Positions 6,001 to 34,952 of a stretch of 64,000 bases of DNA are shown piece by piece. The first letter of the stretch is position 1, and every line of letters begins with the position of its first letter. The notes under the pieces are model-generated. The model searched no databases and was not told where the DNA came from. It saw only the letters and a list, made by a program, of their open reading frames with translations. Source of the stretch: Ostreococcus lucimarinus (taxonomy: Eukaryota); NCBI GenBank assembly GCA_000092065.1, contig CP000590.1; one strand, written 5' to 3'. The position numbers and the translations under genes are program-made.

Positions 6001-7383
6001 GCCGCAGCACAGGTGTACGTCCCGGGATGTAAGATGACTGGCGCGGGCTCGACGAAGGCTGTCGCGGGCGAACGAGCGTCGTTCATCGTTGAGGCACGAG
6101 ACAACAGAGGCAACCGCATGATGGGAGGAGGCGCTACTCTGAGCGCCGTCGTACGATCTGCGTTGACCCCGGGGAAATCAGTCAAGGCCACCATACTTGA
6201 TCAAGGAGATGGTACGTACGTGTGCAGCTACACGATTAACAAAGCTGGTCCGTTCACCATCGTTGTGTCCTCACCCAACTCGCAAGCAACGCTCAGCGCC
6301 ACGTGCGTTGCCGGACCAGCGGACCCAGCATACTGCCGAATCGACGCGAGCGACGTCAAACAGATTGAAGCTGGTACGCGCGGCATCGTCAAGGTGTTAC
6401 GCGCCGATCGCTTCGATAACTTAATTCCCGCTGGTGCGGAGTTGATGCCATTCCGCGTTGAAGTCACTGGCGTCGGCCCGGCGGATGTCGAAACCGTCGA
6501 AGCAGGAGACGGTTCGGCAGAAGTTCGATTCGAGGCTCGTGCAGTCGGTCGATACACTCTTTACGTGTGGAGCGGCTTCAAACGCGAACCGGTGTTGGGT
6601 TCTCCGTGCGAGATTCAAGTCCTACCCAGTCAGCCCGCGGCTTCATCCTGCAAGGCGCAGTTACAAGGCGCCGAGTTCAAAGCTCAAGGCGTCTACAGCG
6701 CGCAAGCGGGTACCACTGTCACGGTGCGCATGCAACCGCGCGACAGATTCGGGAACACCACGGCTTGGAAGTCCTGGCAAACACTCAGCGTTACCGCGAG
6801 TGGTACCGAAGACATAACGTTTACAGAAATTGATGATCAAGAAGCAGTCTCGTCCCGCGGTGTGTTTTCTGCGACGTTTTCGAAAGCCGGCGCGTACGTC
6901 GTCTGGGTTACCGTCGGTGGACAAACCATCGTCGGCTGGCCGCGAGTCGTGCAAATCATTCCGGGCACCACCAACGCCAACGTCTCTCAGCTTCGTCCCG
7001 AGGCCGATAGTATGGCTCTCGCCGCCGAACTGGTGCGCCACGGTGGAAACGACGCTTCTCTCATCGACGCGCTCGGCCGTCAATCCACCGACGTGGACAA
7101 GCTGCGCGGTGAGATGATCGCTTTGAAGCAAAAGTTGGCTTCCTACGAACGCGCTGAACACGACGCGCGTCAGCGTGGCACAATAGATCCCACCGCCACC
7201 GCGCTGACGACTGAGCAAGTGGACAAGAAGAATATGAAAACCATGCAGTTGATGGTCGCCGAGACCGAGTCCGATAGAGGCACGCTCGACTCCGCCAACG
7301 ACGACGACGAGTTCGGCGACGCGTCGCCATTCTATGATGACAACGTTGACGACGCGGAGTTTGAAGACGCACGATCGCCGTGA
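7..7383 (+). CDS. Giant filamin/ABP280-repeat protein, 5'-truncated at window edge (>=2458 aa). Filamin-repeat block I is ~nt 7-1800 and an acidic linker ~1800-2100. An Ala/Met-rich helical repeat array of ~16-aa units resembling MgtE_N/FliG-type repeats spans ~2100-4320. Filamin block II is ~4380-6990 and a coiled-coil/acidic tail ~6990-7383.
   Basis: The frame is open from the window edge, and the track's M at nt 7 is GTG, so the gene continues upstream. There are many Ig-like filamin repeat signatures (HDNGDGSYRCIYS, DNTDGTYTINF, FGDGTYRLSFVVPRAGEW, LDQGDGTYVCSYTINKAGPF). The central region has repeated xMxPxxAAxxLxxL units (LSDMRPEVAAAVLQRL, LADMRPGAAGAVLASM, MRPQPAADAASNME). The call is from motif recognition only. 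Confidence 0.7.
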   Translation: MSVRLTHPSGSQEAIPVTLSRDNKCYTAKIRWLHPGHHSVNIMLDGVVVPGTPVRANAEGKKLALISSALVGDGATTATAGEDAEFTLLARDYGGNQINKGGADLAISCRASGREPIAGEIHDNGDGSYRCIYSSTIAGDIEVVLTLNEGTTQTKRLINVKCEAAECEISECRVDAGKMMLLWNAGDAGLIRVQRRDKYGNPTTKDTANGLNRFAAEVVGPGWADCEALELGDGSCELRLVAQAAGSYDISIVALAIDEETMTPLDVPSVELTSFSAMVSSQETFPSSCVARMALVNGGKEETLAEVDADITLPSTIMAGDDIAMHVLSRDLHGNHTNWLGGERIAVHARGPIEVPFVPMDAVGSFTAVITTAGAYSVAALVGDCACNGWPRILQVVAGPCNPDKCTVSGDALGNCATATPISLLMQATDQYGNPRSLGGDFIEAVLINEDEGTIDTQIIDNTDGTYTINFELDMPIEHELWISANGLREKQSRYSLMPSLGALQASDCVINGLGGERLCLADRSTLFVQPANPSRVMSGREAVVVSVRMPSEMSFNLPLKFETDSRRFSCPLLWVEVGDHHITVNLAGEVVPGCPFMVRVRDPDEEFEEIEGEESQTAMTMVPADNSFGFVYTNDKTAVAAAQAASGIGTTDVDPDAEDEDDEDAFTFGTALNPPPPQQVDSTIAIIRKLELEDAGDALSDMRPEVAAAVLQRLNPQKAACAAAMMSQTELSAAVVMMTEESVLSVLNDAPPAARASIIESLPPAAAAQVMNGMDARAASLCVNKLIDPDVAAAIIAKMKPTKAAEMMQFIPADAQKAILIELDPVSMCALVTGAYEPTAADAIRRGLQVSPDTVSIIFTTAPAEECAKMVRNMQLDAQGCEIAAGAMQRAARTHPRAVENILAMTKMTAVDGGAAIKAAVLRQPGGDVIVKNAETSIAKGEIEIPAPVVKTRQAKFKWGGTGLKPSKTASERAARSLAGMAPKVSAQALADMRPGAAGAVLASMDSERISSIISVMDQNVMASAVGSMEAEEALRVISSSSNAARVTIVEALPAGAAGSILSMLPADEAADLLRAMDASAAIEAVSSMPAKAAALALQELPDDQMSTYLLTLPPSTAAPILSHMCEREEGRVSASKALQLLSTLNADKTTLHISGMLQRDPKSTAKIMTELTQDARAAVLGALNAKDAGKALQFLGPQNAASSLVAAVAAGTSPAIAAVALESLARLGVWPPSIDVPRSGAKVRGPLADVLLVMFELEPEAAAQVLTALDPDVSASAVGAMTPATAGALASAIPDPKAAALLLESMPHAKRAAMIIKMRPQPAADAASNMETENILAVMKTLYETLDPATMSIANDIISKMEPFKAGSVVAGLDEAHAVRIMSALPPLVAAALISSGGLPSDKAGTFLDRVKVDQAENVLAALPPTLAEEAVQKVSSTELKSKTASRTVVHLTSSHISGPGCEECVAGLETKFIFESTNPGGVRIHKGGATLQCTIHHLTFKSQDGTNSVDFIRGEGKHVQVQDMMNGAYEFPYKLDKAGEYDAMITSAGQTRVVRIRCKPTILDPTQCSVVPVEEGTTWRAGEVLVVKVLCRDRFGNDVAPPKQGDAGVDFVLLADGEGPSVVEAEVVNDPAGVGAFAKFRATECGKYSLRIFTADVARQWWGGVQRDCIQGAPIDIVLTATAADASRSSVQLSGIRERGGGMLLGLAGRQMAIIIFARDKFNNEAVFDNQRLRVDAVGVATSVFSLTSKEPGEAMFTSALQRAGTYSLRVTVDGKPVHGFPRNLQVVAAQTDPRFCSIRGDALNTVVAGEVTKVLVNAADRYQNVCLEGGDRLTARLLGPAGSIDADTSDFGDGTYRLSFVVPRAGEWRIFLAVNGVENPKPATSFVASQGGLTSKQLMLIPADKRDEYMVGSESEFFIQSIDYEVGGLEVNGHEAICLRLIAPSGLSTIVPLRLTKDKARYRANIMWPEVGSHSLIAALNGETVVGCPFSVQTAAAQVYVPGCKMTGAGSTKAVAGERASFIVEARDNRGNRMMGGGATLSAVVRSALTPGKSVKATILDQGDGTYVCSYTINKAGPFTIVVSSPNSQATLSATCVAGPADPAYCRIDASDVKQIEAGTRGIVKVLRADRFDNLIPAGAELMPFRVEVTGVGPADVETVEAGDGSAEVRFEARAVGRYTLYVWSGFKREPVLGSPCEIQVLPSQPAASSCKAQLQGAEFKAQGVYSAQAGTTVTVRMQPRDRFGNTTAWKSWQTLSVTASGTEDITFTEIDDQEAVSSRGVFSATFSKAGAYVVWVTVGGQTIVGWPRVVQIIPGTTNANVSQLRPEADSMALAAELVRHGGNDASLIDALGRQSTDVDKLRGEMIALKQKLASYERAEHDARQRGTIDPTATALTTEQVDKKNMKTMQLMVAETESDRGTLDSANDDDEFGDASPFYDDNVDDAEFEDARSP

Positions 7384-11779: not shown

Positions 11780-14197
11780 ATGCGCGCGATGCGGACGCGC
11801 GATCGGGACGCAGACGCGCGAGAGGCGATGGAGACGGCGGCGAAGACGGTGTCGAAGCTCGCGGCGGACGCCGAGCAAGCCGACTTGGTGGAACTGCTTC
11901 GAGAGGCGCCTCGGGAGGCGTATTCGTTTCAAAACGCGGGATGGCCGAGCGATGTGGTGGGTATGAAGAAGGAGGAACTGCCGGGGGTGGTGCTGGAGCG
12001 GTACAACACGCGGCAGTCGGTGTGCTTTTGCGGGGTGCTGCCGGAGATTTCGCGCGCGTGGGCGAGCGTGGACAACGCGTTGTTTTTGTGGAGGTTGGAC
12101 GTCGCGGACGACGTGCCGGTGGAGTACAGCGGCGAAGAGCAAGCGATCGTGGCGGTGGGGTTGGTGAAACCGAAGAGTGGGGTGTTTTTAGAGGCGATCT
12201 CGTACGTGCTCGTCATCGCGACGACGGTGGAGCTCGTCATGGTGGGGGTGTGCTTGGAGGACGACGGACGCGAGCTCACGCTGCATCCGCTGCAGTACTC
12301 GTGCCCGACGGACGCGACCATCATGAACGACATCACGTCTACGCCGGAGGGTAGGATCTTCTTAGCCGGTGCGGACGAAGCGCTTTATGAACTCGTGTAC
12401 GCGCAGAGCGACACGTGGCACAGCAAGCGATGCAAAAAGGTGCGACACAGTCAAAACTTGTCCTCGCTGTTGCCTTCGGTGCTGCGATTGAAGGGCTCGG
12501 ACGCTTTGAAACAAGTCGTCGTGGACGCCAAGCGCGGGATTTTGTACACGCGCAGCGAACAAGGCGTGGTGGTTGTGTACGACGTCGGCGCCGCGGCGAA
12601 GGACGCGCCGAGAAAAGTCGCCGAGGTTAAAAACGTCGCGCAACTCGCCGCGCAGGCTCGCGGTCAAGGGTCTCTGTTTGCATCGGCGACGTCATCGGTG
12701 AAGAAAGGGGCGAAGTTAGTGCACGTCGCATTGGTGCATCCGGAGGAGTCGTCCGTCGTGACGTTGGTGGCGATTTGCGCGGATGGAAGACGCATTTACC
12801 TCACCGCTCTTCCGCCGTCGCGCGGGTACTCGTACGGCGTCGCCTCGGGTACGGGTAGCTCTCGACAAGGGCCTTCGCGACTGTCCGTGGTCGAACAACG
12901 CGACCCGCCGCCGCAAGGAGGAAATCAGCGCGGTATGACGACGGCGCAGGCGCTCTTGAACACCACGTCGAGGGCCTTGGAAATTGAAGCCGGGTTTTAC
13001 AGCAGCGGCGTTTTGTTACTGTCGGACGCGACGCCGAACGACTCTGACGCGCGATTGATACTTTCAAACCGCGACCTGGCGCTACCCCCACACTTGCAGT
13101 TGCCGCCGCCGACGCCCCCACCGAGCTCGGGAAGCGGCACTCGCGGTTTGCGCGAAGTCGTCACCTTGGAACAACTTGAAGGGCGCTGCGCGTCGAGTCT
13201 CGGATCGCTCGGTGAGATTCCTATGCCAAAGAGCGTACAGGACGCGATCGATCCGCCATACCCCACGGGGACGCTTCCAGAAGCACGTGTAAAATCGACG
13301 GGACTACTCTCTGAGCTCGTCACGCAATACATGTGCCCGAGAAGAACGTTTGTGTTGATGACCAACGCCGGGTTGGTTCGATTCGAGAAGGCGCGCCCGA
13401 TTGACACGTTGAGAAGTGTTCTTGAAAAGAACATTCCGGAACAAATCGAGGAGTTCTTTAAGAGTTACGGACCGATTGAAGCTGCGGCAATGTGCGTCGC
13501 GTTATCTGTTTCGGGATCCGAATCCAACGCCGTGATCCTCGCCGCGAAGCGGGCCTTTGACGACCCGCGTCTCACCGGCGAGCCGAGCATCGTGGAGGAT
13601 AGCTACGCGCAAAATCAAGAGAATAATGGTGGATCTTTCAACATGGGGCGTGCGATCGTGCAACCGGTGCTGACTTTTTCGTCGGCGCAGCGTGGACTGT
13701 ACTTGTTCACGGCTCGCATAATGTCTAGCACGTGGGAACGAGCGATCATTGTGCCCGTTCGCGCGCCCGTTCAAACGAATTTGAACGGCAACTCGCGACC
13801 GCTATCGCCGGCGATGAAGATCGCGAACAAAGCGCTCGGCGCGGTGCAAGCGGCAGCTCGGTACATGAGTGAAGAACCGGCGCTCAGATGCTCCTTGGAT
13901 CCGACGTTGCTCAAGAATTTGCACGATCGCTTGATGCCGTTGGTGACTTTCTTGAAGCAGCGTAGACCGCGCATTAGCAGCGGCGCCACGATGTCGCAGA
14001 CGAAGCGGCGTCGAGTGCGTTCATCCGGCAGCGAACTCACGGCACTCCAGGAAGAAGAGCGCAGTCTCTCGGCCCTCTCCGCCTTGGTGAGCCGCACGGC
14101 GCAGGCTTTGTCTCTCATTAGAATCATCATCACTGATGAACGTTTCTCACGAGTGGCCGACATGCTTCCCTCGGCGATTCGCAAGGAGCTGTCACAG
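11780..14197 (+). CDS. NUP155: Nucleoporin Nup155/Nup170 homologue, exon 1 (N-terminal beta-propeller).
   Basis: Nucleoporin_N-like sequence: NALFLWRLDVADDVPVEYSGEEQAIVAVGLVKPKSGVFLEAISYVLVIATTVELVMVGV. A GT donor (caG|GTACGT) lies at ~14198. Confidence 0.8.
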
Positions 14198-14239
14198 GTA
14201 CGTTTCCGCGCTCCTACGCCTCGTCTTTTCTTTTTTGCC

Positions 14240-14325
14240 TGCGCGATGATGATTTCCCATATATCAATCTGTCAATCCCCTGATTCACAGTGATGACAAC
14301 TCATATGGTGCCCTTCCACTGAGCG
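14240..14325 (+). ncRNA. Candidate intron-encoded box C/D snoRNA in Nup155 intron 1.
   Basis: Canonical order and spacing are present: C box AUGAUGA (~14246-14252), D' CUGA (~14280-14283), C' GUGAUGA (~14290-14296) and D CUGA (~14319-14322). The C-to-D distance is ~77 nt. The intron is AT-rich, unlike the surrounding GC-rich DNA. Confidence 0.4.
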
Positions 14326-14395
14326 TCCACTTTTACTTTTCCGCGCTGTGTTCTTCTGAGACTTTCGACTGACTTTTTGTTTTACACTGCGACAG

Positions 14396-14833
14396 CTCAC
14401 CTTGAAGAAGTTGGTTTCGACGACGCACGGGGCGCGTTTGGCGGGTGCGCTCATCGAAGCGATGATGTCTCACATAATGTCTCACGCTCGTCACAGCGCC
14501 GAGGAATTAGCTGCGGAGCTCCAAAAGGGATGCCCAGACTTTTTCGGCGCAGATTCGAGGACATTTTACCACGCCAGAGACTTGTTGCAGTTGGCGCGCG
14601 ACGCGCGCGCGAGAAAGGAAAACGTCTTGCGCGACCAATACGTGAACGATGCGATCGCTTTATTCATGAAGGTGCCGACTTCTGGAGACTTATCGGCCGT
14701 TTGTGCTGAACTTGTCGATCTTCGCGCGTTTCATGGCGTCACCGCTGTGCCCCTCGCGGCGGCGGCGGCGCTCGAGGCGCGCGCAGAGGAAGCTCGTTTT
14801 ACGATGCATTCGCAACCGAATGTGGACATGGTG
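14396..14833 (+). CDS. NUP155: Nup155 homologue, exon 2 (phase 0). Intron 1 is ~14198-14395 (198 nt, GT..AG).
   Basis: An acceptor ...cgacAG|CTCACC precedes the exon, and the frame continues in frame with exon 1. A donor GTG|GTAAGT lies at ~14834. Confidence 0.75.
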
Positions 14834-14919
14834 GTAAGTTTATCTTGACCTCAAATCTCGAAAGAACTTCGTTGCGATGAAGACGAATCTGATACGTGAA
14901 CGTTCGGCTTACCGCCGGG

Positions 14920-15022
14920 CGTGCCGTGATGATTAAAAACTACAGAACATCTAAGCCTGAGCGACGGCGAATCATTCTCGGCTCGAGTCACGACGGGATC
15001 GCGAAAATCTCTTACTGACGAC
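14920..15022 (+). ncRNA. Candidate intron-encoded box C/D snoRNA in Nup155 intron 2.
   Basis: A C box GUGAUGA (~14926-14932), internal CUGA (D', ~14957-14960) and D box CUGA (~15015-15018) are present, about 90 nt apart. A terminal stem is not obvious. Confidence 0.3.
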
Positions 15023-15042
15023 AAATTTTTACCGCATTATAG

Positions 15043-16482
15043 GATCTCCAATCGTGCTTTGAAGTCACGTGTACCACGATTCGGGCGCTTGCGACTGGAA
15101 GGGCTGATGCGGACGCTGAACCAGGTTCGCTGAGTCGCGTCGCGGCGGAAGAACTTCCCGAGGACATTCGTGAACGAGGTCTCGTGAAGATTCTAGAGCA
15201 GCTTCAACGAGTGTCTGGAGCTGACTCACAAGATTTCATGCACCGCGTATTTGCGGAGCTGATTGCAGTGAGACGCGACGCCATGCTTTTATCGCTACCC
15301 GCGGCTATGTTGGAACCGTACTTGGTGAACAAGAGCGCGTTGACGTCTGCGCAACAAGGCGGCGCGCTCACGCCGGATGAGGCGAGACATCTCGATCTCT
15401 TGGCGCAGTTGTACGCCGCCCGAAGTCTGTTTGGATTGGCGGCACAGGTCGATTGCTCGTTAGCGGAGCGTCGATGCGCGAACGACGAAACGTTCAGTTT
15501 GGACCAGCGCATGGCTTTGTTTGAGCGCGCGCTCATGCACGCCAGAAAGTCGGTCGACGGGGGATTGACCAATGGTTTGGACACGTCGTTTTGCGAAAAC
15601 GTCGACAGCAAAATCAAATTGCTCGACATGCAGCGGCGAGTGCTGGGCGTGTGCATAGAGCGCTCCCGTCAAGCACGCGCCACCGGATCGTCGAACGCTC
15701 CGGAGGAGGCGTTTGTGTACGAATTGGAGCGCGAGTTGAAGCAACTGAGCGACTTGTACAACGACTTCGCCAAGCCGTGTGAGTTGTGGGACATCTGCCT
15801 CGAAATGGTGCACTTCTCGCAATACCACGATCCGGATGGCGAGATTGTGTGTGACTTATGGGATAAGCTCCTCTTACAAGCCGCGTCTCGCGCGCCGAGC
15901 GCCGCGACGTGCCTGCGGGAAGCCTGCCTCGTGGTTCGCGCGTTGGGCGTGAAGTTGTTCCCATCGGACGTCGCGTTTCCGGTCATTCACGTGGCTTTGC
16001 GTTTGGAGCTCATGGCGGCAGGACTGTGGGGTGTTCCCGATGTCGCAGTCGAAGCGCACGTCGACGATGAGTATGACACGAGCGAAGTCGCGGACGCGCT
16101 CGTCGTCGCGTGCAAAGGACTCGCAGAGCCCGTGCAACGAGCGTACGACCGCTTGCTCGCGACCCCGGCCCAACGCATGCACGATAAGCGTCTGTCGAAA
16201 GTGGATGCGTTACAAACCCCGCGTTTGCGCCTCCGCTTGCTCAGATCGGTGTACTTTGTGCTCCAGCTTTGGGACCAGTCGCTCGTGCCCAAGGCGACGG
16301 CGTACGGCGAACCGAGAGCGTACGCCACCGGAGGCCACGTGCGCGCGGCGATCGGCGACTTGTGCGTGAGCTACGCCTCGGAAAGCCGACGAATGCAGTG
16401 TCCGAATGAGGTTATTCGCGCGAACGCCGAGGAACTCGCCGCCGCTTTCGACACGTTCGGCCGCCGCTTGCTTTCTTCGTAG
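15043..16482 (+). CDS. NUP155: Nup155 homologue, exon 3 (alpha-solenoid C-terminal part). Intron 2 is ~14834-15042 (209 nt).
   Basis: A polypyrimidine tract plus ttatAG acceptor is at ~15042, and the in-frame extension of the 15184 ORF (DLQSCFEVTCTTIRA...IRERGLVKILEQL) reaches back to it. The assembled protein is ~1431 aa, typical for Nup155. The stop codon TAG is at 16480-16482. Confidence 0.75.
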   Translation, partial: DLQSCFEVTCTTIRALATGRADADAEPGSLSRVAAEELPEDIRERGLVKILEQLQRVSGADSQDFMHRVFAELIAVRRDAMLLSLPAAMLEPYLVNKSALTSAQQGGALTPDEARHLDLLAQLYAARSLFGLAAQVDCSLAERRCANDETFSLDQRMALFERALMHARKSVDGGLTNGLDTSFCENVDSKIKLLDMQRRVLGVCIERSRQARATGSSNAPEEAFVYELERELKQLSDLYNDFAKPCELWDICLEMVHFSQYHDPDGEIVCDLWDKLLLQAASRAPSAATCLREACLVVRALGVKLFPSDVAFPVIHVALRLELMAAGLWGVPDVAVEAHVDDEYDTSEVADALVVACKGLAEPVQRAYDRLLATPAQRMHDKRLSKVDALQTPRLRLRLLRSVYFVLQLWDQSLVPKATAYGEPRAYATGGHVRAAIGDLCVSYASESRRMQCPNEVIRANAEELAAAFDTFGRRLLSS

Positions 16483-19189: not shown

Positions 19190-19660
19190 ATGTCTCTCGC
19201 GACCGTCTCGCGCGCGCTCTCGCGCCCTCGCGTCGTCGTCGGACGCAAGGCATCGCGACGCACCGATTCCGAGCCCGCGGCTCGACGGACGACGCGCATG
19301 CACGCCTCGGACATCCAACGCTTGGGCACCGATGACCCTCGCATGAGTCAGGTGGTCGTGCACAACGGCATCGTCTACTGCAGCGGACAGGTTGGATTGA
19401 CCACGACCACGGTGCGAGAACAAACGATCGAAACGCTGGAAAAGTTTGACAAACTGCTCGCGATGGCGGGGACGGATAAGTCGCGAATATTGACCTCGAT
19501 GTGCTGGCTGCGGGACATCAAAGACGCGCCCGAGTTCAACGCCGTGTACAACGCGTGGATCGATCCGGATAATAAACCCACGCGGGCGTGCGTGCAGAGC
19601 GAGTTGGCGCGACCTGAATTGTTGGTTGAGGTGCAAATTACCGCGGCGTTGCCGCCGTGA
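19190..19660 (+). CDS. RIDA: RidA/YjgF/UK114-family enamine/imine deaminase with an N-terminal organellar presequence.
   Basis: VVVHNGIVYCSGQVG...TIETLEKFDKLLAMAG...NAVYNAWIDPDNKPTRACVQSELARPELLVEVQITAAL. The N-terminus is Arg/Ser-rich. Confidence 0.8.
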   Translation: MSLATVSRALSRPRVVVGRKASRRTDSEPAARRTTRMHASDIQRLGTDDPRMSQVVVHNGIVYCSGQVGLTTTTVREQTIETLEKFDKLLAMAGTDKSRILTSMCWLRDIKDAPEFNAVYNAWIDPDNKPTRACVQSELARPELLVEVQITAALPP

Positions 19661-19774: not shown

Positions 19775-21346
19775 CTACAGCTTGCTGTTCGGCTTGGCGT
19801 CGAACATGGGGTACCACGCGAACGGGTCTTCGGACACGTAGGTGACGACTTGCTTTTGGTGCAAGTACTTGTCCATGCCGTTCGCGCCGAGGTCGCGACC
19901 GAATCCGCTTCGCTTGCGACCGCCCCACGGGAGCTGAGCGAAGCAGGGTTGCGAGCAATTCACCCACACGATCCCGGTGTCAAACGCGGCAGTCATACGC
20001 TCGCGTCGCGCTAAGTCGTCTGTGATCACCGCCGCGGCTAAGGCGTAATCGGAATCGTTCGCCATCGCCACGACTTCCGTTTCAGAGGCGAACGTCTTGA
20101 CGCACATCACCGGGCCAAAAATTTCTTCTCGCCACACTTCCGCATCCATAGGGACGTCGACGAATACCGTGGGTTCGAGATAGAACCCCTCTCGACAGTC
20201 CGGATCGCTCGGTTTCTTGCCGCCCGTCAAAAGCGTGTATCCCTTGCGCTTCGCGCGTTCGACCATTTTCATCACCTTTTTGTACTGCCCTTCGCTCACG
20301 AGCGGGCCGAGGCGACACCCCTTGACGAGTGGGTTGCCGTACGGAATGGCTTCCGCAGCCTCCTTGAGACGCGCTAAGAACTTCTCTCGAATGCGCTCGT
20401 GAATGAAGACGCGCGACGTCGCGCTGCAGATCTGACCATTCGTCCAGAAACACCCAAACAGAGCCCACTCCACCGCCTTTTCCAAATCGCAGTCGTCGAA
20501 AATGACCAACGCGCTCTTGCCGCCCAATTCCAACGATACGGGCTTGACATCTTTCGCGCACGCGCTCATGATGATGCGGCCGGTTTGCAACGAGCCAGTG
20601 AACGATATTTTATCCACACCCTTGTGTGCGCACAGCGCAGCGCCAGCCTCGTCGCCTCGCCCCGTGACTACGTTGAACGCCCCCGGCGGCAACCCTGCTT
20701 CGACGCACACGTCCCCCAACACCTGACACGTCAAGCTCGCGAGCTCACTCGGTTTCAGCACCACCGCACATCCACTCGCGAGCGCGGGCGCGACTTTCCA
20801 CGTCGCCATGAGCAACGGATAGTTCCAAGGCGTGATCAAACCGATCACCCCCAGCGCCTCGCGTCGCAACCGTCCCGCGAACTCGTCCATGGGTAACTTC
20901 ACATCCTCCTCCGCGTACGCCTTATCCCCGAACACTTCATCGCACCGATCGGCGTAATAATCAAAGCACGCGCTGACATCATCGATATCCCACTCGCTCT
21001 CCTCGATCGGCTTCCCCGCGTCCAGCGTCTCCAGCTCGGCGAGCGCGCGTTTCCGCCGTTCGATCCCTCTCGCAATCCCCCGCAGCACCCGCGACCTTTC
21101 GCGCCCCGGCGTGGCGCTCCACACCTTATATCCCTTGCGCGCCGCCCGCACCGCGTCGTCGATCATCGCGCGATCGCCCGCACCGACGGCACCGATGTTT
21201 TTATTGTCGTGCGGGTTCACCACCGGCAGCGTCCTCGCGGCACCGCCGAGCGCCTGCGCCTGCGCCGCAGCCTGCGGCGCGCGCACCCACGCGTTATTAA
21301 TAAATTGTTCCACCCGTCCGCATCGTCCCGGCGGCGGCGCGGCCAT
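19775..21346 (-). CDS. Aldehyde dehydrogenase of the ALDH10-type (aminoaldehyde/betaine-aldehyde dehydrogenase) with a C-terminal -SKL. The track ORF starts at 21409 with GTG; the first ATG is 21346.
   Basis: FTGSLQTGRIIMSACAKDVKPVSLELGGKSALVIFDDCDLEKAVEWALFGCFWTNGQICSATSRVFIHE is the catalytic Cys/Glu region typical of plant AMADH/BADH. The C-terminus ...KPNSKL is a PTS1 signal. Confidence 0.85.
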   Translation of the reverse strand: MAAPPPGRCGRVEQFINNAWVRAPQAAAQAQALGGAARTLPVVNPHDNKNIGAVGAGDRAMIDDAVRAARKGYKVWSATPGRERSRVLRGIARGIERRKRALAELETLDAGKPIEESEWDIDDVSACFDYYADRCDEVFGDKAYAEEDVKLPMDEFAGRLRREALGVIGLITPWNYPLLMATWKVAPALASGCAVVLKPSELASLTCQVLGDVCVEAGLPPGAFNVVTGRGDEAGAALCAHKGVDKISFTGSLQTGRIIMSACAKDVKPVSLELGGKSALVIFDDCDLEKAVEWALFGCFWTNGQICSATSRVFIHERIREKFLARLKEAAEAIPYGNPLVKGCRLGPLVSEGQYKKVMKMVERAKRKGYTLLTGGKKPSDPDCREGFYLEPTVFVDVPMDAEVWREEIFGPVMCVKTFASETEVVAMANDSDYALAAAVITDDLARRERMTAAFDTGIVWVNCSQPCFAQLPWGGRKRSGFGRDLGANGMDKYLHQKQVVTYVSEDPFAWYPMFDAKPNSKL

Positions 21347-21420
21347 CGTCGCGCGCGCGCGAGTGTCGGGACACTTTTCGCGAAAAAGTGAAAAAGCGCA
21401 CCGCCGCACTGTCGGCCGCG
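21347..21420. promoter_or_regulatory. 74-bp interval between the divergent ATGs of the ALDH10 and GABA-T genes; a presumed bidirectional promoter with 5'UTRs.
   Basis: This is inferred from the head-to-head geometry. It contains an A-rich stretch (cgaaaaagtgaaaaagcg). Confidence 0.4.
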
Positions 21421-22923
21421 ATGCTCGCGCGCGCGCTCGAGCGATGCGCGCGACGACGCGCGCGCGAGGCGATTTCGCGCGCGTCGCGCGACGCGCGCGC
21501 GTCGACGCGCGCGTCGTCGTCGTCGTCGCGCGCGGGGACGTCGAACGGTGAACCAGCCGCCCCGGTGGTGCGGACGCCCATCCCGGGACCGGCGTCGCGA
21601 CGCGCCGTGGAAGCGCTCAGCGCGCACGCGGACGTGGGGTCGATACGATACTTCGTCGACGTCGACGCTTCGCGCGGGAATTACGTCGTCGACGCGGATG
21701 GGAACGCGGTGCTGGACCTGTACGCGCACATCGCGTCGCTGCCGGTGGGATACAACCACGAAAAGATGCTCGCGGCGATGCGAGACGAAGCGAACGTGGG
21801 GATTCTCGCGCACCGACCGGCGCTGGGGAATAACCCACCGATCGGATGGGACGACAGAGTGGCGCGAACGCTCATGCGAGTGGCGCCGAAAGGGTTGACG
21901 CGCGCGACGACGATGGCGTGCGGGGCGTGCGCGAACGAACACGCGATGAAGGCGGTATTCATAAGCGCGGCGAACGCGCGGCGGGGCGGACGCGAGATAA
22001 GCGAGGAAGAAAAGGTGAGCTGTCTGACGAATCAAGCGCCCGGGTCGCCGGGATTTAAAGTTTTGTCGTTCGATGGTGCGTTTCACGGACGGACGGCGGC
22101 GTGTCTGTCGCTGACGCACACAAAGTGGATTCACAAGCTTGATTTCCCGACGTTTGACTGGCCGTCGTGCCCGTTTCCGAAATTAAAGTACCCACTGGAT
22201 AAATTTGAGCGAGAAAACGCCGAAGAGGAGGCGCGGTGTCTCGCTGAAGTCGAGAAGGCGTTGACGCGAGATCGAGACGTCGTCGCGGTGATCGTCGAGC
22301 CCATGCAAGCGGAGGGCGGCGATAATCACGCGAGCGCGGATTTTTTCCGAAAGCTTCGCGCTTTGACGAAGAGAGAAAACGTCCGCATGATCGTCGATGA
22401 GGTGCAGACTGGGTGTGGATCGAGTGGGACGTTTTGGGCGCACGAAGCTTGGGGATTAGAACATCCGCCGGACATTGTGACGTTTAGCAAAAAAATGCAA
22501 ATCGCGGGATTCTACGCGGCCGCGGATCTCGCGCCCGAGCTCCCGTACCGCATCTTCAACACGTGGATGGGTGATCCAGCAAAGCTCATTCAGCTCGAGG
22601 TTGTCCTCGATTGCATAGAAGAGCATCATTTATTGGACGTCGTGAAATCCGCCGGCGAGACGCTCTTGAATGGGTTGCGCGAGTTACAGGAGAAATATCC
22701 GAGCATTCTCGCCAATGCGCGGGGCGTGGGCACGCTTGTCGCCATCGATTGCGATACATCCGCGCGCAGGGACGCGCTGTTGCACGCACTCTTGCAAAAA
22801 GGTGTCGACATCGGCGGGTGCGGCTCGGCGACCATTCGCGCGCGTCCGGGGCTCTTGTTTACTTCGGCGCACGCGGGGGTGTTTTTAGAGCGGTTCGAGC
22901 GAGTCCTCGCTGCTGAAATGTAG
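21421..22923 (+). CDS. 4-aminobutyrate aminotransferase (ABAT-type class III PLP aminotransferase) with a mitochondrial-type presequence. The track ORF starts at 21388 with GTG.
   Basis: EPMQAEGGDNHASADFFRKLRALTKRENVRMIVDEVQTGCGSSGTFWAHEAWGL...PDIVTFSKKMQIAGFY. The N-terminus is Arg/Ala/Ser-rich (MLARALERCARRRAREAISRASRDARAS). Confidence 0.8.
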   Translation: MLARALERCARRRAREAISRASRDARASTRASSSSSRAGTSNGEPAAPVVRTPIPGPASRRAVEALSAHADVGSIRYFVDVDASRGNYVVDADGNAVLDLYAHIASLPVGYNHEKMLAAMRDEANVGILAHRPALGNNPPIGWDDRVARTLMRVAPKGLTRATTMACGACANEHAMKAVFISAANARRGGREISEEEKVSCLTNQAPGSPGFKVLSFDGAFHGRTAACLSLTHTKWIHKLDFPTFDWPSCPFPKLKYPLDKFERENAEEEARCLAEVEKALTRDRDVVAVIVEPMQAEGGDNHASADFFRKLRALTKRENVRMIVDEVQTGCGSSGTFWAHEAWGLEHPPDIVTFSKKMQIAGFYAAADLAPELPYRIFNTWMGDPAKLIQLEVVLDCIEEHHLLDVVKSAGETLLNGLRELQEKYPSILANARGVGTLVAIDCDTSARRDALLHALLQKGVDIGGCGSATIRARPGLLFTSAHAGVFLERFERVLAAEM

Positions 22924-25723: not shown

Positions 25724-26044
25724 CGCGCCGCCCCGCGCCCGCCCGCGAATCCCCGCGCGTCGTCGATGAATCCCGTCTCCGTCGCGTCACCGTCGTCCCG
25801 ACGACGTCGCCGCGCGCCCCGTTCGACGTCCCGCGTCGTCCCGCGTCGTCCCGCGTCCGCGTCGCGACGCCGTCGTCCGCGCGGTCGCCGCCGCGTCGAC
25901 GATTGATGATTCATTCGCGATTCGCATCCATCGCGCGACCCGTAAGTTTCGCGAAATCACGCGCGCTCAGAGCCGAAATCATCCCTAGGGTTCGGGCGAC
26001 GCCGCGCGACGCCCTCGATTGCGCGTCGCGGCGACGACGCGACG

Positions 26045-31388: not shown

Positions 31389-31475
31389 GGTGGATCGTCG
31401 AGGGGCGTCGCGCGTCGACGTGTGACGTTTCCATTACAGAACGAGGACGCGCTCTATGTAGCTCGTCGTGAACGA

Positions 31476-31510
31476 ATGATGGATGGATGGATGGATGGAT
31501 GGATGGATGT
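31476..31510. repeat. (ATGG)8 microsatellite in the 163-bp spacer upstream of the FKBP gene.
   Basis: Read directly: gatggatggatggatggatggatggatggatg. Confidence 0.9.
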
Positions 31511-31551
31511 TTGAGTGATTGCGTGCAACTCGATTCTTTCCTCGACGTCGC

Positions 31552-33021
31552 TCACGCGTCGTCACCGAGCATGCCGGCCAAAATTTCTGGATGCGGCGTC
31601 GGCGGCAACGGCGGCGCGGCGGCGGTCGCCGCCGGCGCGCTCGTGGTCGGGGCGAAGATGTCTTCGTAACCGCTGCGTCCGCCGTTGGCGCCGTCGCTTC
31701 CAACTCTCAATGCAGACGTGAACGGGTCGTCGTCCGTGCCCGTGGTGCTGGCCAAGAAGGACTGAATAGCTCCGTCGGCGAGGCCCCACTGGTCGTACGC
31801 GGCGTCGAAAGACGTCGACGACAGGGGCGTCGATGGCATCGCTGATTCAAATCCAGGCGGCACGCGCACGGATGAGTGATTCGGCGACGCCGGCAGCGCA
31901 TCGATAGCGTGCGACGACATGCGTCGGACTTCGCCGAGAGGCGCCACGGGGGGCAACGGCGGATTGATTTCGCTCGGCGGACGCGCGTACTCGGGCGGCG
32001 GACCTTTCGGTAGCGGCGGTGGATCTCGCGGCAGCGGTGACGGAACCGGCGGTCGAACGCCGATCGCGCCGATCTGTTTCGGCGCGTTCGCCATGCGCGG
32101 CGTTGGGATCTTTCGAAGCGTCAAACCACTGGGCCGCGGCGCCGGCGCTTGCTTGCGAGGCGACGCGGGGAGTGGTATTTTCTTCGACTCCGCGCCACCG
32201 GCGGTCACCTTGATCGACGTCATCGTTTCGGACGACTTCTCCGTCGGTTGCTGCTGTTTGTTCGTCTTCAGAGCCTCAACCTCTTGCTCTCGCTGTTTTT
32301 CTAGCTCGGCCGCCGCCGCCGCCTCGGCGACGCGAGCCTCCTCCTCTTCTCGCTTCTTCATGGCTAATCTCTCCTCCTCGGCCGCGACTCGCTCCGCCTC
32401 GCGCTTGGCGCGCTCCGCCTCGACCAACTGCGCGATCTCGGCGCGCTCTAGCTCCTCTCGTTTCGCTAAAAGCTCTTGCTCTTCGCGAAGCCGACGTTTA
32501 CGCTCCTTCGCCGCCTCCTTCGCTCGAGCGATCTCTTCTAAACTCCGCGGCGTCCCTCTCGGCGATCGCGATTCGGGCGTTCGCGGCGATCCATCACCGC
32601 TTCGCCCGCCATCGCTCGCGCCGTCGATTCTCTCTCCCTCGCCCCTCGCGCGCTTCCCCTCGCCGTTCGTCGCCCCTCGCTCCGCCGTCATCGCCGCCAC
32701 CGCGCACGCCGCGCTCGCGCACGCCAGCGCCTTCGCCGTCGCCCACAGCGCGTCTACAAAATCACCGCTTCCGACGCCGCCGTCCCCTCGCAGCACGTTC
32801 GCCAGCAGGCTTCCGCCGACGTACGGTTCGTCGCGCGCGTCGCCCCTCGCCCTCGCGCGCGCGTCCGATCCCTCCATCCGCGTCGCCGCCCCCGCGCACG
32901 CCCCCGCGCACGCGCCCAGCGCGATCGCGAGCGCCCACGCGATCGCGCGCCGTCCGAACGTCGCGCGTCGCGCCTCGCGCGCGCGCGTCGCGTCCGCGCG
33001 CGCGATTCGCACCGACCGCAT
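31552..33021 (-). CDS. Hypothetical protein (~489 aa from the ATG at 33021). It has a hydrophobic N-terminal segment, an E/K/R-rich coiled coil and a Pro-rich C-terminal half. The 5' part of the 906-aa track ORF is treated as non-coding.
   Basis: Coiled-coil REEQELLAKREELERAEIAQLVEAERAKREAERVAAEEERLAMKKREEEEARV, then PPVPSPLPRDPPPLPKGPPPEYARPPSEINPPLPP. No family was recognised. Confidence 0.3.
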   Translation of the reverse strand: MRSVRIARADATRAREARRATFGRRAIAWALAIALGACAGACAGAATRMEGSDARARARGDARDEPYVGGSLLANVLRGDGGVGSGDFVDALWATAKALACASAACAVAAMTAERGATNGEGKRARGEGERIDGASDGGRSGDGSPRTPESRSPRGTPRSLEEIARAKEAAKERKRRLREEQELLAKREELERAEIAQLVEAERAKREAERVAAEEERLAMKKREEEEARVAEAAAAAELEKQREQEVEALKTNKQQQPTEKSSETMTSIKVTAGGAESKKIPLPASPRKQAPAPRPSGLTLRKIPTPRMANAPKQIGAIGVRPPVPSPLPRDPPPLPKGPPPEYARPPSEINPPLPPVAPLGEVRRMSSHAIDALPASPNHSSVRVPPGFESAMPSTPLSSTSFDAAYDQWGLADGAIQSFLASTTGTDDDPFTSALRVGSDGANGGRSGYEDIFAPTTSAPAATAAAPPLPPTPHPEILAGMLGDDA

Positions 33022-33236
33022 CGCGCGAATCGCCGCCGCGCCGCCGCGCCGCGCCGTCGCGACGCTGGTTCGCGCCGCCGCGCGAGTCTCGCGGCGCGTC
33101 GTCTCCCGCGCCCGGTCCGCGCGTCGCGCGCGCGTCGCGACGCGCGTCGCCGCGCGCGTCGATCTGTCGTCGTCGTCGTCTCGTCGATCTTCGCGCGTCC
33201 GCACACGCGCGCGCGCGTCGTCGCGCGCCTCGACGC

Positions 33237-33629
33237 ATGACGCTCGCGAATCGGACGCTCGACGCCGCGCGCCGCGCGCGCGCCGCCGCGTCGCGCGCCG
33301 CGAGCGCGACGTACGACGCGATCGCGCCCGAGGTGATCGCGCGGTACGAGAAAACCATGGCGGCGAACGCCGAGTACGTCGTGCGAGACCCGGCGCGGGC
33401 GAAGCGACTGGGACGCGAGTTCGTGTACACGAACCTGGCGCGGCTGCCGCGGGCGATCGAGGCGGCGACGGCGGAGGCGGCGGCGGCGAGGGCGACGGCG
33501 GCGCGAGCGCGAGCGGGCGAGGCGGACGTGGCGACGATCGGGACGGCGGTGGTGTTCGCGGCGGAGGTGTACGCGTGGTTTTGCGTGGGGGAGATCGTGG
33601 GACGGGGAGGGAAGCTGACGGGGTACTAG
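33237..33629 (+). CDS. Mitochondrial F1Fo-ATP synthase subunit g-like protein.
   Basis: The C-terminal TM segment AVVFAAEVYAWFCVGEIVGRGGKLTGY matches the subunit-g motif (human EVLMWFYVGEIIGKRGIIGY). The size of 130 aa fits. Confidence 0.55.
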   Translation: MTLANRTLDAARRARAAASRAASATYDAIAPEVIARYEKTMAANAEYVVRDPARAKRLGREFVYTNLARLPRAIEAATAEAAAARATAARARAGEADVATIGTAVVFAAEVYAWFCVGEIVGRGGKLTGY

Positions 33630-33704
33630 ACGAGGGAGAGACGCGGGAGGCGCGCGCGCGACGCGACGAGACGAACGCGCGAGGGTCGTTTGAAAATAAA
33701 AATC

Positions 33705-34865
33705 CTACTCGAATCCTCTGGGCGCGCGACCGGGCGGAACGTACGCCGTGGGATCGAAACCTAACGCGGTGAAATCGTCGAGGTCGCGCGCGCCGGCGCG
33801 GGCGCGATCGGCGCGACCGTCGGTCATTTTCGGCGGGACGGGCTCGCCGCGTTTGGGAAGCGCTTCGATCGCCTCGCGCGCCTCGTCCTCGGTGAAGAAC
33901 AGGTTCATCTGGCGAAGTAATTGTCGACCGTCGCAATCGCCCACGCCGAGGTACTCGCCCACCAATCGTCTGCGCTGCACGACGCCGCCGAAGTCGGCCC
34001 AGACGTCGGCGTCGGCGTCGGCGTCGGCGACGAGCCCCCACTCGGCGAGCGCCTCGCGCGTGAACACCGCGCGATCTCGGTCGGCGCGGCGAGCGTCGGC
34101 GATCGCGCGCGCGATGTCCTCGCCCTCGCCGTGCTCGACGCCCACGTTCCCTCGCGCGTGCCACTTTCCGTCCTCTTTCGCCGAGCTCACGCGCGTGCCC
34201 ATAAACGCGTGCGCGGCGTCGGGAAAACGTCGCAAAAACGCATTCCTCAGCTGCCGCCCCGCGGTGTCGCAATCGAACAACACGACGATCGGTGCGTCAT
34301 ACTTTACGCTTAATTCCTCGATCTCATCCATTCTCTCGCGCTTCACCTCCATCTCGCCGTTCGGTCGCCTGCGAAACGCGCCTCGATGTCGCACCGCGAC
34401 GACTTTCGCTCGTTCGCTCGTAAATCCCGCCTTGTTTCGCACCGCTCGAACGTCCGCGCCGCCCTCGACGACGACGACGTATTCACACGCGTGTTTTCTC
34501 GCCTCCCTCGCGCGCTTTCGCGCGACGTACGCGTCGCGTTCTTTCCGCCGCGTCTCGCGCCGCGCGTCCCGCGGCGCGTCGTCGTCGTCGTACGCGCGAA
34601 CGAACGTCGACGCCGCGATGGACGTCGACGTCGACGTCGCCGAGTCATCGGTCGCGCGGCGTTCGTTCGCGTCGTCGTCGGCGCGCTTCGCGTCGTCGTC
34701 GGCGCGTCGTCGCGGTCGCCGTCGCGGAAGGAAAGCGCCGAGCGCGTCGTCGTTCGCGGCGGCTGGTCGCGCCGCGCGCCGACGCGCGCGCGAGACGCGC
34801 GACGCGCGACGCGCGAGCGCCGCCGACGGCGCGCGCGGCGCGATGGACGGCGCGCGGAGGGGCAT
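33705..34865 (-). CDS. Toprim-domain protein (RNase M5/DUF4093-like), probably organelle-targeted.
   Basis: Toprim-like motifs: EYVVVVEGGADVRAVRNKAG...VVAV and YDAPIVVLFDCDTAGRQLRNAF. The N-terminus is Arg/Ala-rich. The ATG lies only 88 bp downstream of the TAF5 stop. Confidence 0.45.
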   Translation of the reverse strand: MPLRAPSIAPRAPSAALARRASRVSRARRRAARPAAANDDALGAFLPRRRPRRRADDDAKRADDDANERRATDDSATSTSTSIAASTFVRAYDDDDAPRDARRETRRKERDAYVARKRAREARKHACEYVVVVEGGADVRAVRNKAGFTSERAKVVAVRHRGAFRRRPNGEMEVKRERMDEIEELSVKYDAPIVVLFDCDTAGRQLRNAFLRRFPDAAHAFMGTRVSSAKEDGKWHARGNVGVEHGEGEDIARAIADARRADRDRAVFTREALAEWGLVADADADADVWADFGGVVQRRRLVGEYLGVGDCDGRQLLRQMNLFFTEDEAREAIEALPKRGEPVPPKMTDGRADRARAGARDLDDFTALGFDPTAYVPPGRAPRGFE

Positions 34866-34952
34866 GGGGCGCGGCCGAATGCGGACGACGACGGCGGTCG
34901 AGCCGCCGTAACAGAACGGGCGAGCGAGGAGACTACGATTTCTTAAGTGTGA

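Follow-up and report, generated by a model that had tools for sequence, protein, structure and literature searches.

The window analysed, a 64,000-nucleotide stretch of contig CP000590.1 (assembly GCA_000092065.1), is nuclear DNA of Ostreococcus lucimarinus CCE9901, as indicated by the exact RefSeq matches of two proteins that it encodes. These are an aldehyde dehydrogenase of the ALDH10 family and a 4-aminobutyrate (GABA) transaminase, here called GABA-T, specified by adjacent single-exon genes that diverge from start codons set only 74 bp apart. The ALDH10 coding sequence (523 amino acids plus stop; identical to XP_001420154.1 / A4S3U6) occupies positions 19775..21346 on the minus strand. 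The corresponding open reading frame (ORF), 19775..21409, opens with GTG; its first ATG is found at 21346, and the stop codon at 19775-19777. The GABA-T coding sequence (500 amino acids plus stop; identical to XP_001419983.1 / A4S3U7) occupies positions 21421..22923 on the plus strand. Its ORF, 21388..22923, similarly opens with GTG, and the first ATG, at 21421, is the only sensible start, because the following in-frame methionine lies more than 110 codons downstream.

An earlier note on this DNA, made from the letters alone, had described a head-to-head pair with ATGs about 74 bp apart, encoding an ALDH10 aminoaldehyde dehydrogenase (AMADH) that ends in the peroxisomal signal -SKL and a GABA transaminase of the ABAT type, and had pointed out that AMADH makes GABA and GABA-T consumes it. 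All of this has held up. The distance is exact to the base (spacer 21347..21420), the succession of the two reactions is established biochemistry, and the data on the two proteins are given below. The enzyme identities are solid and were previously known, as ALDH10 with Ile441 has been published for O. lucimarinus and the transaminase is named in UniProt. The pairing is real, unusually tight and genus-wide, and appears to be undescribed in the literature searched.

The aldehyde dehydrogenase

The minus-strand product matches the Pfam family Aldedh (1.3e-163). Its best PDB matches are pea AMADH2 (3iwj, 622 bits), maize AMADH1 (4i8p, 613 bits) and spinach betaine aldehyde dehydrogenase (BADH, 588 bits); PDB entries of the ALDH10 family score 545-622 bits, those of other aldehyde dehydrogenase families 395 bits at most. 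In a search of 5.8 billion proteins, all the matches ranking below the Mamiellales orthologues were plant ALDH10s, at 52-58% identity. Under the AGNC rule, membership in an aldehyde dehydrogenase family is set by more than 40% identity to established members (PMC3280228). The protein exceeds this value with ALDH10 members, and is closer to them than to other families. The NCBIfam equivalogs of bacterial BADH, PatD and succinic semialdehyde dehydrogenase (SSADH) all remain below their own cutoffs. TIGR01804 (BADH) comes first, with 516 bits under a cutoff of 668.6, and SSADH is clearly the lowest (TIGR01780, 371 bits). The earlier note had considered that the protein might fall outside ALDH10, for instance as an SSADH; this identity was rejected, given the gap between ALDH10 and other structures and the position of the SSADH model, far under the BADH and AMADH models.

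Residues typical of AMADHs are in place. The catalytic residues C307, E273 and N175 correspond to Cys294, Glu260 and Asn162 of the pea enzyme PsAMADH2, the codon for C307 mapping by alignment to 20426..20428 on the minus strand. The carboxylates of the omega-aminoaldehyde site, D120 and D123 (D110 and D113 in PsAMADH2), and the aromatic residues Y176, W183, W301 and W474 (Tyr163, Trp170, Trp288 and Trp459) are conserved in all the 11 green-lineage ALDH10 sequences aligned. Specificity depends on the position corresponding to Ala441 of the spinach enzyme (SoBADH), at which Ile marks AMADHs that lack appreciable BADH activity, and Ala or Cys efficient BADHs (PMC7823795, PMC4046141). Here the O. 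lucimarinus protein carries Ile459 (codon 19970..19972, minus strand; structure-sequence alignments and MAFFT mapping), which aligns residue by residue with A441 of 4a0m/4v3f, I444 of 3iwj and a Cys of 4i8p. One ALDH10 each, with Ile at 441, has been described for O. lucimarinus, O. tauri and Micromonas pusilla (PMC4046141). Judged by its sequence, the protein is an ancestral Ile441-type ALDH10 aminoaldehyde dehydrogenase, and the sole ALDH10 of O. lucimarinus.

It is very improbable that the enzyme is instead a true BADH, providing glycine betaine as osmolyte and metabolically unrelated to the transaminase. The name 'betaine-aldehyde dehydrogenase' used by JGI/IMG and the first rank of TIGR01804 among NCBIfam models would fit this view. 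The score is under the model cutoff, however, and with the change A441I the spinach enzyme becomes about 200-fold less efficient as a BADH (PMC7823795, PMC4046141). Moreover, high glycine-betaine accumulators rely on non-peroxisomal A441 or C441 isoenzymes (PMC4046141), whereas the O. lucimarinus protein ends in -SKL. A BADH identity was rejected on the Ile found at the 441-equivalent position, and the JGI label is probably too specific for the same reason.

The transaminase

The plus-strand product matches Aminotran_3 (Pfam, 4.9e-97), and passes narrowly the NCBIfam model TIGR00699 (GABAtrns_euk, EC 2.6.1.19), with 571.2 bits against a cutoff of 567.15; the runner-up, lysine 6-transaminase, reaches 273 bits. 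Among solved structures, pig and human-type ABAT match best, with 501 bits for pig 1ohv. When the protein is aligned to 1ohv, residues K357, D326, Q329 and T381 correspond to K329, D298, Q301 and T353 of the mature pig enzyme, residues R224, R473, F221 and E298 to R192, R445, F189 and E270, and the cysteines of a CxxC motif, C167 and C170, to C135 and C138. All these active-site and Fe-S residues are fully conserved, both in the 1ohv alignment and in an alignment of 17 sequences. In pig ABAT, Lys329, Asp298, Gln301 and Thr353 belong to the pyridoxal phosphate (PLP) site, Lys329 being the PLP lysine, and Arg192, Phe189, Glu270 and Arg445 to the substrate site, where both arginines bind the carboxylate and Glu270 acts as a switch; Cys135 and Cys138 are ligands of the inter-subunit [2Fe-2S] cluster. 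These roles were reportedly assigned in pig ABAT structures by Storici et al.

Outside Mamiellales, the nearest relatives come from animals, oomycetes and other algae. The GABA-T of land plants is a different class-III enzyme, dependent on pyruvate. The O. lucimarinus enzyme is best assigned to the animal/fungal ABAT type, a 4-aminobutyrate / beta-alanine : 2-oxoglutarate transaminase, and not to the land-plant type.

Predicted location of the two proteins

The dehydrogenase ends in KPNSKL. The Ser-Lys-Leu codons (19778..19786, minus strand) specify a canonical type 1 peroxisomal targeting signal (PTS1), fitting the consensus (S/A)-(K/R)-(L/M) (PMC4046141). The C-terminus was compared with those of ten other aligned green-lineage sequences, from Ostreococcus, Micromonas, Bathycoccus-like organisms, Cymbomonas, pea and others. 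SKL is found in four Ostreococcus lineages and in M. pusilla, SRL in one Ostreococcus-like sequence, AKL in a Bathycoccus-like sequence, Cymbomonas and pea. Two C-termini lie outside the quoted consensus, -TKL of Pterosperma and -SSS of a relative called P0037. O. tauri has peroxisome biogenesis genes, PEX11 being listed (PMC12216367 supplements). ALDH10 is predicted to be peroxisomal.

P0037, encoded at 4073-5581 of contig L008 (GC 48%) and 63% identical to the O. lucimarinus protein, additionally has Val at the 441-equivalent position, and may represent a non-peroxisomal ALDH10 variant.

Compared with the mature pig enzyme, the transaminase is extended at its N-terminus by about 32 codons (21421..21516, plus strand; MLARALERCARRRAREAISRASRDARASTRAS), a candidate organelle presequence; the alignment to 1ohv begins at residue 47, corresponding to mature residue 15. 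The extension is rich in Arg, Ala and Ser, and has a net charge of +7 with three acidic residues. The first 46 residues include 11 Arg and four acidic residues (three Glu, one Asp), and no Lys. Similar Arg/Ala/Ser-rich extensions are found in all the Ostreococcus orthologues, and extensions are present in all the Mamiellales orthologues aligned, one of which, Micromonas-like, begins with MLRHASRRALSAARW. The tract is likely an organelle presequence, and the protein is predicted to be mitochondrial. Composition does not separate mitochondrion from plastid: the N-termini of the S5 and CIA30 proteins encoded in the same window are similar to the extension, and plastid and mitochondrial peptides are alike in Ostreococcus.

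In Micromonas-like GABA-T genes (contig L018, 9929-11362; contigs L016, L032 and L091; the label was inferred from GC content and neighbouring flagellar genes) a conserved FPGGEP..P motif precedes the called ATG, with no in-frame ATG upstream. The presequence is therefore probably encoded by a 5' exon that is joined by splicing. In contigs L091 and L093 the GABA-T coding region is interrupted by about 180 bp, likely an intron, and the MLRHASRRALSAARW presequence is present.

Predicted consecutive reactions on omega-amino compounds

According to these assignments, the ALDH10, predicted in the peroxisome, would oxidise omega-aminoaldehydes with NAD+, 4-aminobutanal (ABAL) to GABA and 3-aminopropanal (APAL) to beta-alanine, and would be poor on betaine aldehyde. 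The ABAT-type enzyme, predicted in the mitochondrion, would produce succinic semialdehyde from GABA, or malonate semialdehyde from beta-alanine, the amino group going to glutamate. An ALDH5 (SSADH) encoded elsewhere in the genome would finish the route to succinate. Six aldehyde dehydrogenase genes, including one ALDH5 and one ALDH10, are known in O. tauri (PMC3280228, Table 2), and because of the ALDH5 gene the path from GABA through succinic semialdehyde to succinate can be regarded as complete.

The main flux might nevertheless run through beta-alanine, the linked genes then serving the step from 3-aminopropanal to beta-alanine and its exchange with malonate semialdehyde. In this variant APAL would derive from the oxidation of spermidine and spermine or of 1,3-diaminopropane, and the pair would contribute to the balance of beta-alanine and pantothenate, or to propionate and uracil catabolism. 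In the source databases the transaminase is entered as '4-aminobutyrate aminotransferase/(S)-3-amino-2-methylpropionate transaminase', and the names used for the ABAT family extend to beta-alanine and beta-aminoisobutyrate. Plant ALDH10s oxidise APAL as well as ABAL, the peroxisomal I441 enzymes being tied to polyamine catabolism (PMC4046141), and all the substrate-channel residues of ALDH10 are conserved. The beta-alanine route is for these reasons equally compatible with the two proteins, whose sequences do not discriminate C3 from C4 substrates. The ALDH5 of O. tauri, however, completes the GABA route. We consider a predominant beta-alanine flux unlikely; it would be a variant of the explanation favoured below, that of two transcriptionally coupled enzyme genes, rather than an exclusive alternative to it.

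The 74-bp spacer

The spacer (21347..21420; CGTCGCGCGCGCGCGAGTGTCGGGACACTTTTCGCGAAAAAGTGAAAAAGCGCACCGCCGCACTGTCGGCCGCG) has a GC content of 66%, and is a putative shared or overlapping promoter region. It is the shortest of the six to seven or so credible divergent ATG-ATG gaps of the window, a small sample taken from a rough gene map; the others measure 287, 321, 461, about 508, 1111 and about 1404 bp. The two genes qualify as a bidirectional pair, defined as head-to-head genes less than 1 kb apart. Head-to-head genes are ordinary in the genus, as 2,288 bidirectional pairs, involving about half of the genes, have been counted in O. tauri (PMC4035068). Some transcriptional coupling is likely, because with 74 bp between the ATGs the core promoters must overlap or reach into the partner gene. 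Overlapping untranslated regions are common in O. tauri transcripts (PMC4378021), and for this reason the 5' ends of the ALDH10 and GABA-T transcripts may overlap rather than fit in 74 bp.

Orthologous ATG-ATG spacers measure 135/136 bp in clade X, 130 bp in clade X2, 138 bp in clade Y, 154 bp in O. mediterraneus and 106 bp in O. tauri. A k-mer comparison of the six Ostreococcus spacers revealed no common motif, only CG-rich low-complexity words being shared. Four of the six, those of O. lucimarinus, clade X, clade Y and, in part, O. mediterraneus, contain an A-rich AAAAAG[CT]G-like element, which is missing in the spacers of clade X2 and O. tauri.

In O. lucimarinus a perfect 12-bp palindrome, TTTTCGCGAAAA (21375..21386), precedes a GAAAAAG[CT]G sequence present in two overlapping copies; among the six spacers the palindrome is found in this species only. 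In our own reading it matches an E2F site at seven of eight positions, and is not claimed as such a site. Its 10-bp core, TTTCGCGAAA, occurs twice in the 64 kb (21376-21385 and 25947-25956) against 0.48 expected, a count of two being reached in 9 of 100 shuffles. Both copies are located in head-to-head spacers, one between ALDH10 and GABA-T, the other between the genes for a CofD-like protein and an eIF3 subunit. The core could be a bidirectional-promoter or E2F-like element, or a chance occurrence.

Distribution and synteny

Orthologue contigs were gathered starting from both genes and through a GABA-T-based metagenome scan, and were then searched with both proteins. Every full-length locus with a GABA-T at least 72% identical to that of O. 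lucimarinus carries ALDH10 head-to-head; a partial locus (L053), which holds the 3' end of GABA-T only, is outside this upstream count. The pair is present in six lineages: O. lucimarinus, clades X, X2 and Y, O. mediterraneus (UniRef A0A7S1END7) and O. tauri (XP_003081654.1). At loci with a GABA-T of 60% identity or less, no ALDH10 was found within up to 8 kb (less at contig ends). Several Micromonas-like GABA-T genes have no ALDH10 partner, and are flanked by a Ras gene upstream and an ammonium transporter gene downstream. Similarly, no GABA-T was found within 8 kb on either side of the ALDH10 gene of M. pusilla CCMP1545 (GG663751.1), whose head-to-head partner is an unrelated gene of 1,287 amino acids. 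A GABA-T partner is also missing from the Bathycoccus-like ALDH10 contigs, an absence weakly established because these contigs are short (640 bp upstream in L006), and from contig L008, the one of GC 48% encoding the ALDH10 without PTS1. From the loci sampled, the head-to-head arrangement would have arisen in, or been kept only by, the genus Ostreococcus. Conservation of the adjacency in related genomes, which the earlier note had set as a check, was accordingly found in all the six Ostreococcus lineages, and not at Micromonas or Bathycoccus-like loci.

The pair is part of a block of at least 10 genes colinear in every Ostreococcus lineage, in the order Nup133, Voldacs, L-PSP, ALDH10, GABA-T, S5, CofD-like, eIF3 subunit, Ipi1-like. 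As the entire block is colinear, general synteny suffices to predict that the pair is conserved, and its conservation tells little on selection; adjacency is found only where the whole block is preserved, and no conservation beyond general synteny was detected. The pair has remained intact in spite of nearby changes: O. tauri lacks the L-PSP gene here, and clade Y carries about 1.7 kb of inserted DNA beside ALDH10. These are the only hints of independent retention.

In the Micromonas-like contig L018 (10001-14117), about 2.5 kb separate GABA-T from a Voldacs (pICln-like) gene, and an ammonium transporter gene occupies the interval; in Ostreococcus, ALDH10 and L-PSP fill the place between the two. 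This difference hints at a common ancestor in which GABA-T and Voldacs were already close, ALDH10 arriving afterwards.

The L-PSP gene (19190-19660, plus strand) encodes a RidA/YjgF protein (Endoribonuclease L-PSP, Pfam 1.1e-22) with an N-terminal extension, and is convergent to ALDH10 across a 114-bp gap. O. mediterraneus and clades X and Y share this location of the gene with O. lucimarinus. As reactive enamines, which damage PLP enzymes, are quenched by RidA proteins, a functional link to the nearby transaminase is conceivable.

Expression of the O. tauri orthologues

The chromosome-10 aldehyde dehydrogenase gene of O. tauri is ostta10g02190, and the S5 gene ostta10g02210 (orthology lists, PMC5508029 supplements). 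The annotations 'Aldehyde dehydrogenase, C-terminal' for ostta10g02190 and 'Pyridoxal phosphate-dependent transferase' for ostta10g02200 (PMC12216367 supplements) agree with synteny. The data of PMC12216367 cover O. tauri under 16:8 and 8:16 light:dark cycles, followed by constant light or dark. Under long days (LD), the ALDH10 and GABA-T orthologues both peak at zeitgeber time (ZT) 20 (Table S2, 'LD ZT20'). Both belong to the class that free-runs rhythmically in constant dark (DD) only (Table S1, 'LD_DD_rhythmic_genes'), and both are in the list of bimodal genes, with two daily peaks (Table S3). The long-day proteome includes both proteins, with log2 values of about 19.3 and 16.5 (Table S4, PMC12216367). 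The rows filed under the two identifiers in Table S5 (rhythmic proteins) bear annotation at odds with the genes, and were set aside. Neither gene is present in the supplements of Lelandais 2016. By our own rough estimate, the chance that two independent rhythmic genes share all three classes is a few percent; as the classes are intercorrelated, the agreement is no more than suggestive.

Coupled genes or chance neighbours

As a whole, the data are best explained by two ordinary enzyme genes, head-to-head since the ancestor of Ostreococcus, coupled in transcription and catalysing consecutive steps on omega-amino compounds, an account to which we give an even chance. Two single-exon genes would have been placed head-to-head in the common ancestor of the genus. 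Their core promoters, which overlap or reach into the partner gene, would couple transcription, and the coupling would be coarsely visible in the shared long-day night-time peak of O. tauri. The pair belongs to a familiar class, that of functionally related divergent gene pairs of compact genomes. The data weakly suggest a functional meaning of the association, which is plausible.

Several observations weigh against this account. The expression classes are broad: about 23% of the LD-rhythmic genes fall in ZT20, and about a third of all classified genes in the DD-only class. The unrelated S5 gene, tail-to-tail with GABA-T, also peaks at ZT20, though it falls in another free-running class. In the short-day lists GABA-T appears under ZT0, and ALDH10 is absent from those of ZT0 and ZT4 and from the ZT8 genes listed. 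For the co-expression expected in the earlier note, the common LD ZT20 bin, the DD-only class and bimodality give weakly positive evidence; the peak of S5 and short-day bins that may differ weigh against a specific coupling. The two proteins are predicted in different organelles, and for this reason no argument of channelling can be made. By our own estimate, a genome of about 7,700 genes should contain roughly one adjacency of pathway-consecutive enzymes by chance. A Pfam scan of all the credible ORFs revealed no amine oxidase, glutamate decarboxylase, SSADH or pathway transporter in the 64-kb window. The missing spacer motif, the colinearity of the whole block and the unpaired Micromonas and Bathycoccus-like loci point in the same direction.

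Most of these observations would fit a neutral coincidence, in which an ancestral rearrangement brought the genes together, and colinearity and minimal intergenic DNA kept them so, with no coupling beyond that of any close divergent pair. The ordinary occurrence of bidirectional pairs, involving half of the O. tauri genes, is in line with it. The spacer is however the shortest divergent gap of the window (74 bp versus at least 287 bp), and the two genes have three coarse expression classes in common, S5 differing in free-running class. Furthermore, the reactions are strictly consecutive for two physiological substrates, and local changes, the L-PSP loss and the clade Y insertion, left the pair together. 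Coincidence is a real possibility, somewhat short of an even chance.

The account of coupled enzyme genes can be carried further, to a two-gene module kept by selection, in which a shared promoter of about 100 bp would co-control the peroxisomal ALDH10 and the mitochondrial GABA-T for a night-time, cross-organelle salvage of polyamine and omega-amino nitrogen to glutamate and succinate. This extension is doubtful. If it were true, it would illustrate how extreme compaction of the genome drives the pairing of genes at pathway level in a free-living eukaryote. Coupling by itself, if true, would offer a tractable handle on the recycling of polyamine and GABA nitrogen in one of the most abundant picoeukaryotes of the ocean, as O. 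tauri is transformable, and would show how two genes for proteins of different organelles can be driven from a spacer of about 100 bp. If coupling is not true, the locus hosts two correctly annotated housekeeping-type enzymes, chance neighbours in a very compact genome.

Other features of the window

The other 27 or so credible ORFs with Pfam matches are unrelated to the pathway, and include those for a nucleoporin, Myb, S5, CofD-like, eIF3 and kinesin proteins, among others. A larger metabolic cluster, which requires at least three non-homologous genes, was rejected, as only two pathway genes are present. The nucleoporin, of the Nup133 type, is spread over three plus-strand ORFs at 11780-16482 (11780-14293, 14462-14848 and 15238-16482). 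These match successive parts of Nucleoporin_N/C, which implies two introns, or else frameshifts, in a region otherwise poor in introns. The interval from about 31400 to 34900 is very GC-rich (0.64-0.71), and the only long ORFs in it have an abnormal codon-position composition (GC2 about 0.72); none of these has a Pfam match, and no credible gene model was found there. The plus-strand ORF 133-7383 encodes a protein of 2,416 amino acids, in which MgtE_N and FliG_M-like segments, five filamin repeats and a GEX2-type Ig domain are combined, a mix unusual for a non-flagellate alga.

Comparison with known systems

Taken singly, the two proteins resemble well-studied enzymes. ALDH10 is 54% identical over its full length to PsAMADH2 (3IWJ), with identical catalytic Cys, Glu and Asn, Asp110 and Asp113, aromatic box and Ile444. 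It differs from the pea enzyme by about 15 extra N-terminal residues and a short Ala/Gln-rich insertion, AQAQALGGAA. It shares a C-terminal PTS1 with plant peroxisomal I441-type enzymes such as PsAMADH2 and Arabidopsis ALDH10A9, and is the single ALDH10 of its genome (PMC4046141). Unlike plant ALDH10s, for which no such arrangement is reported, the algal gene, known here from its sequence, has a GABA transaminase gene as genomic partner. The transaminase is about 47-50% identical to pig ABAT (1OHV), and shares with it the PLP lysine, Arg192 and Arg445, Glu270, both cluster cysteines and an N-terminal extension of presequence length. In contrast to the animal mitochondrial enzyme it is found in a green alga, and its candidate presequence contains three acidic residues.

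The yeast GAL1-GAL10 genes are separated by about 600-700 bp, and the spacer described here is far shorter. The two systems are otherwise alike, and resemble the bidirectional pairs catalogued in plants and O. tauri (PMC4035068), in the head-to-head order, the very short upstream region, the single pathway and the coarse co-expression. Functionally linked divergent pairs with a shared promoter differ in that the ALDH10 and GABA-T products are predicted in different organelles, and that no cis-element common to the six Ostreococcus spacers was found.

In Escherichia coli, patA-patD, the puu cluster with puuE, and gabDTP carry out the same chemistry in the same order, from aminobutyraldehyde dehydrogenase to GABA transaminase to SSADH. 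The bacterial putrescine and GABA operons have linked genes as well, linkage serving co-regulation there. They are, however, co-directional, and encode cytosolic proteins of other aldehyde dehydrogenase and transaminase subfamilies, the NCBIfam bacterial models being below cutoff for the algal proteins. A precedent within the same genus is the nitrate-assimilation gene cluster of Ostreococcus, reportedly described by Derelle et al. in 2006, in which genes of one nitrogen-related pathway are similarly gathered; that cluster comprises many genes, whereas ALDH10 and GABA-T form a pair with no further pathway gene within 64 kb.

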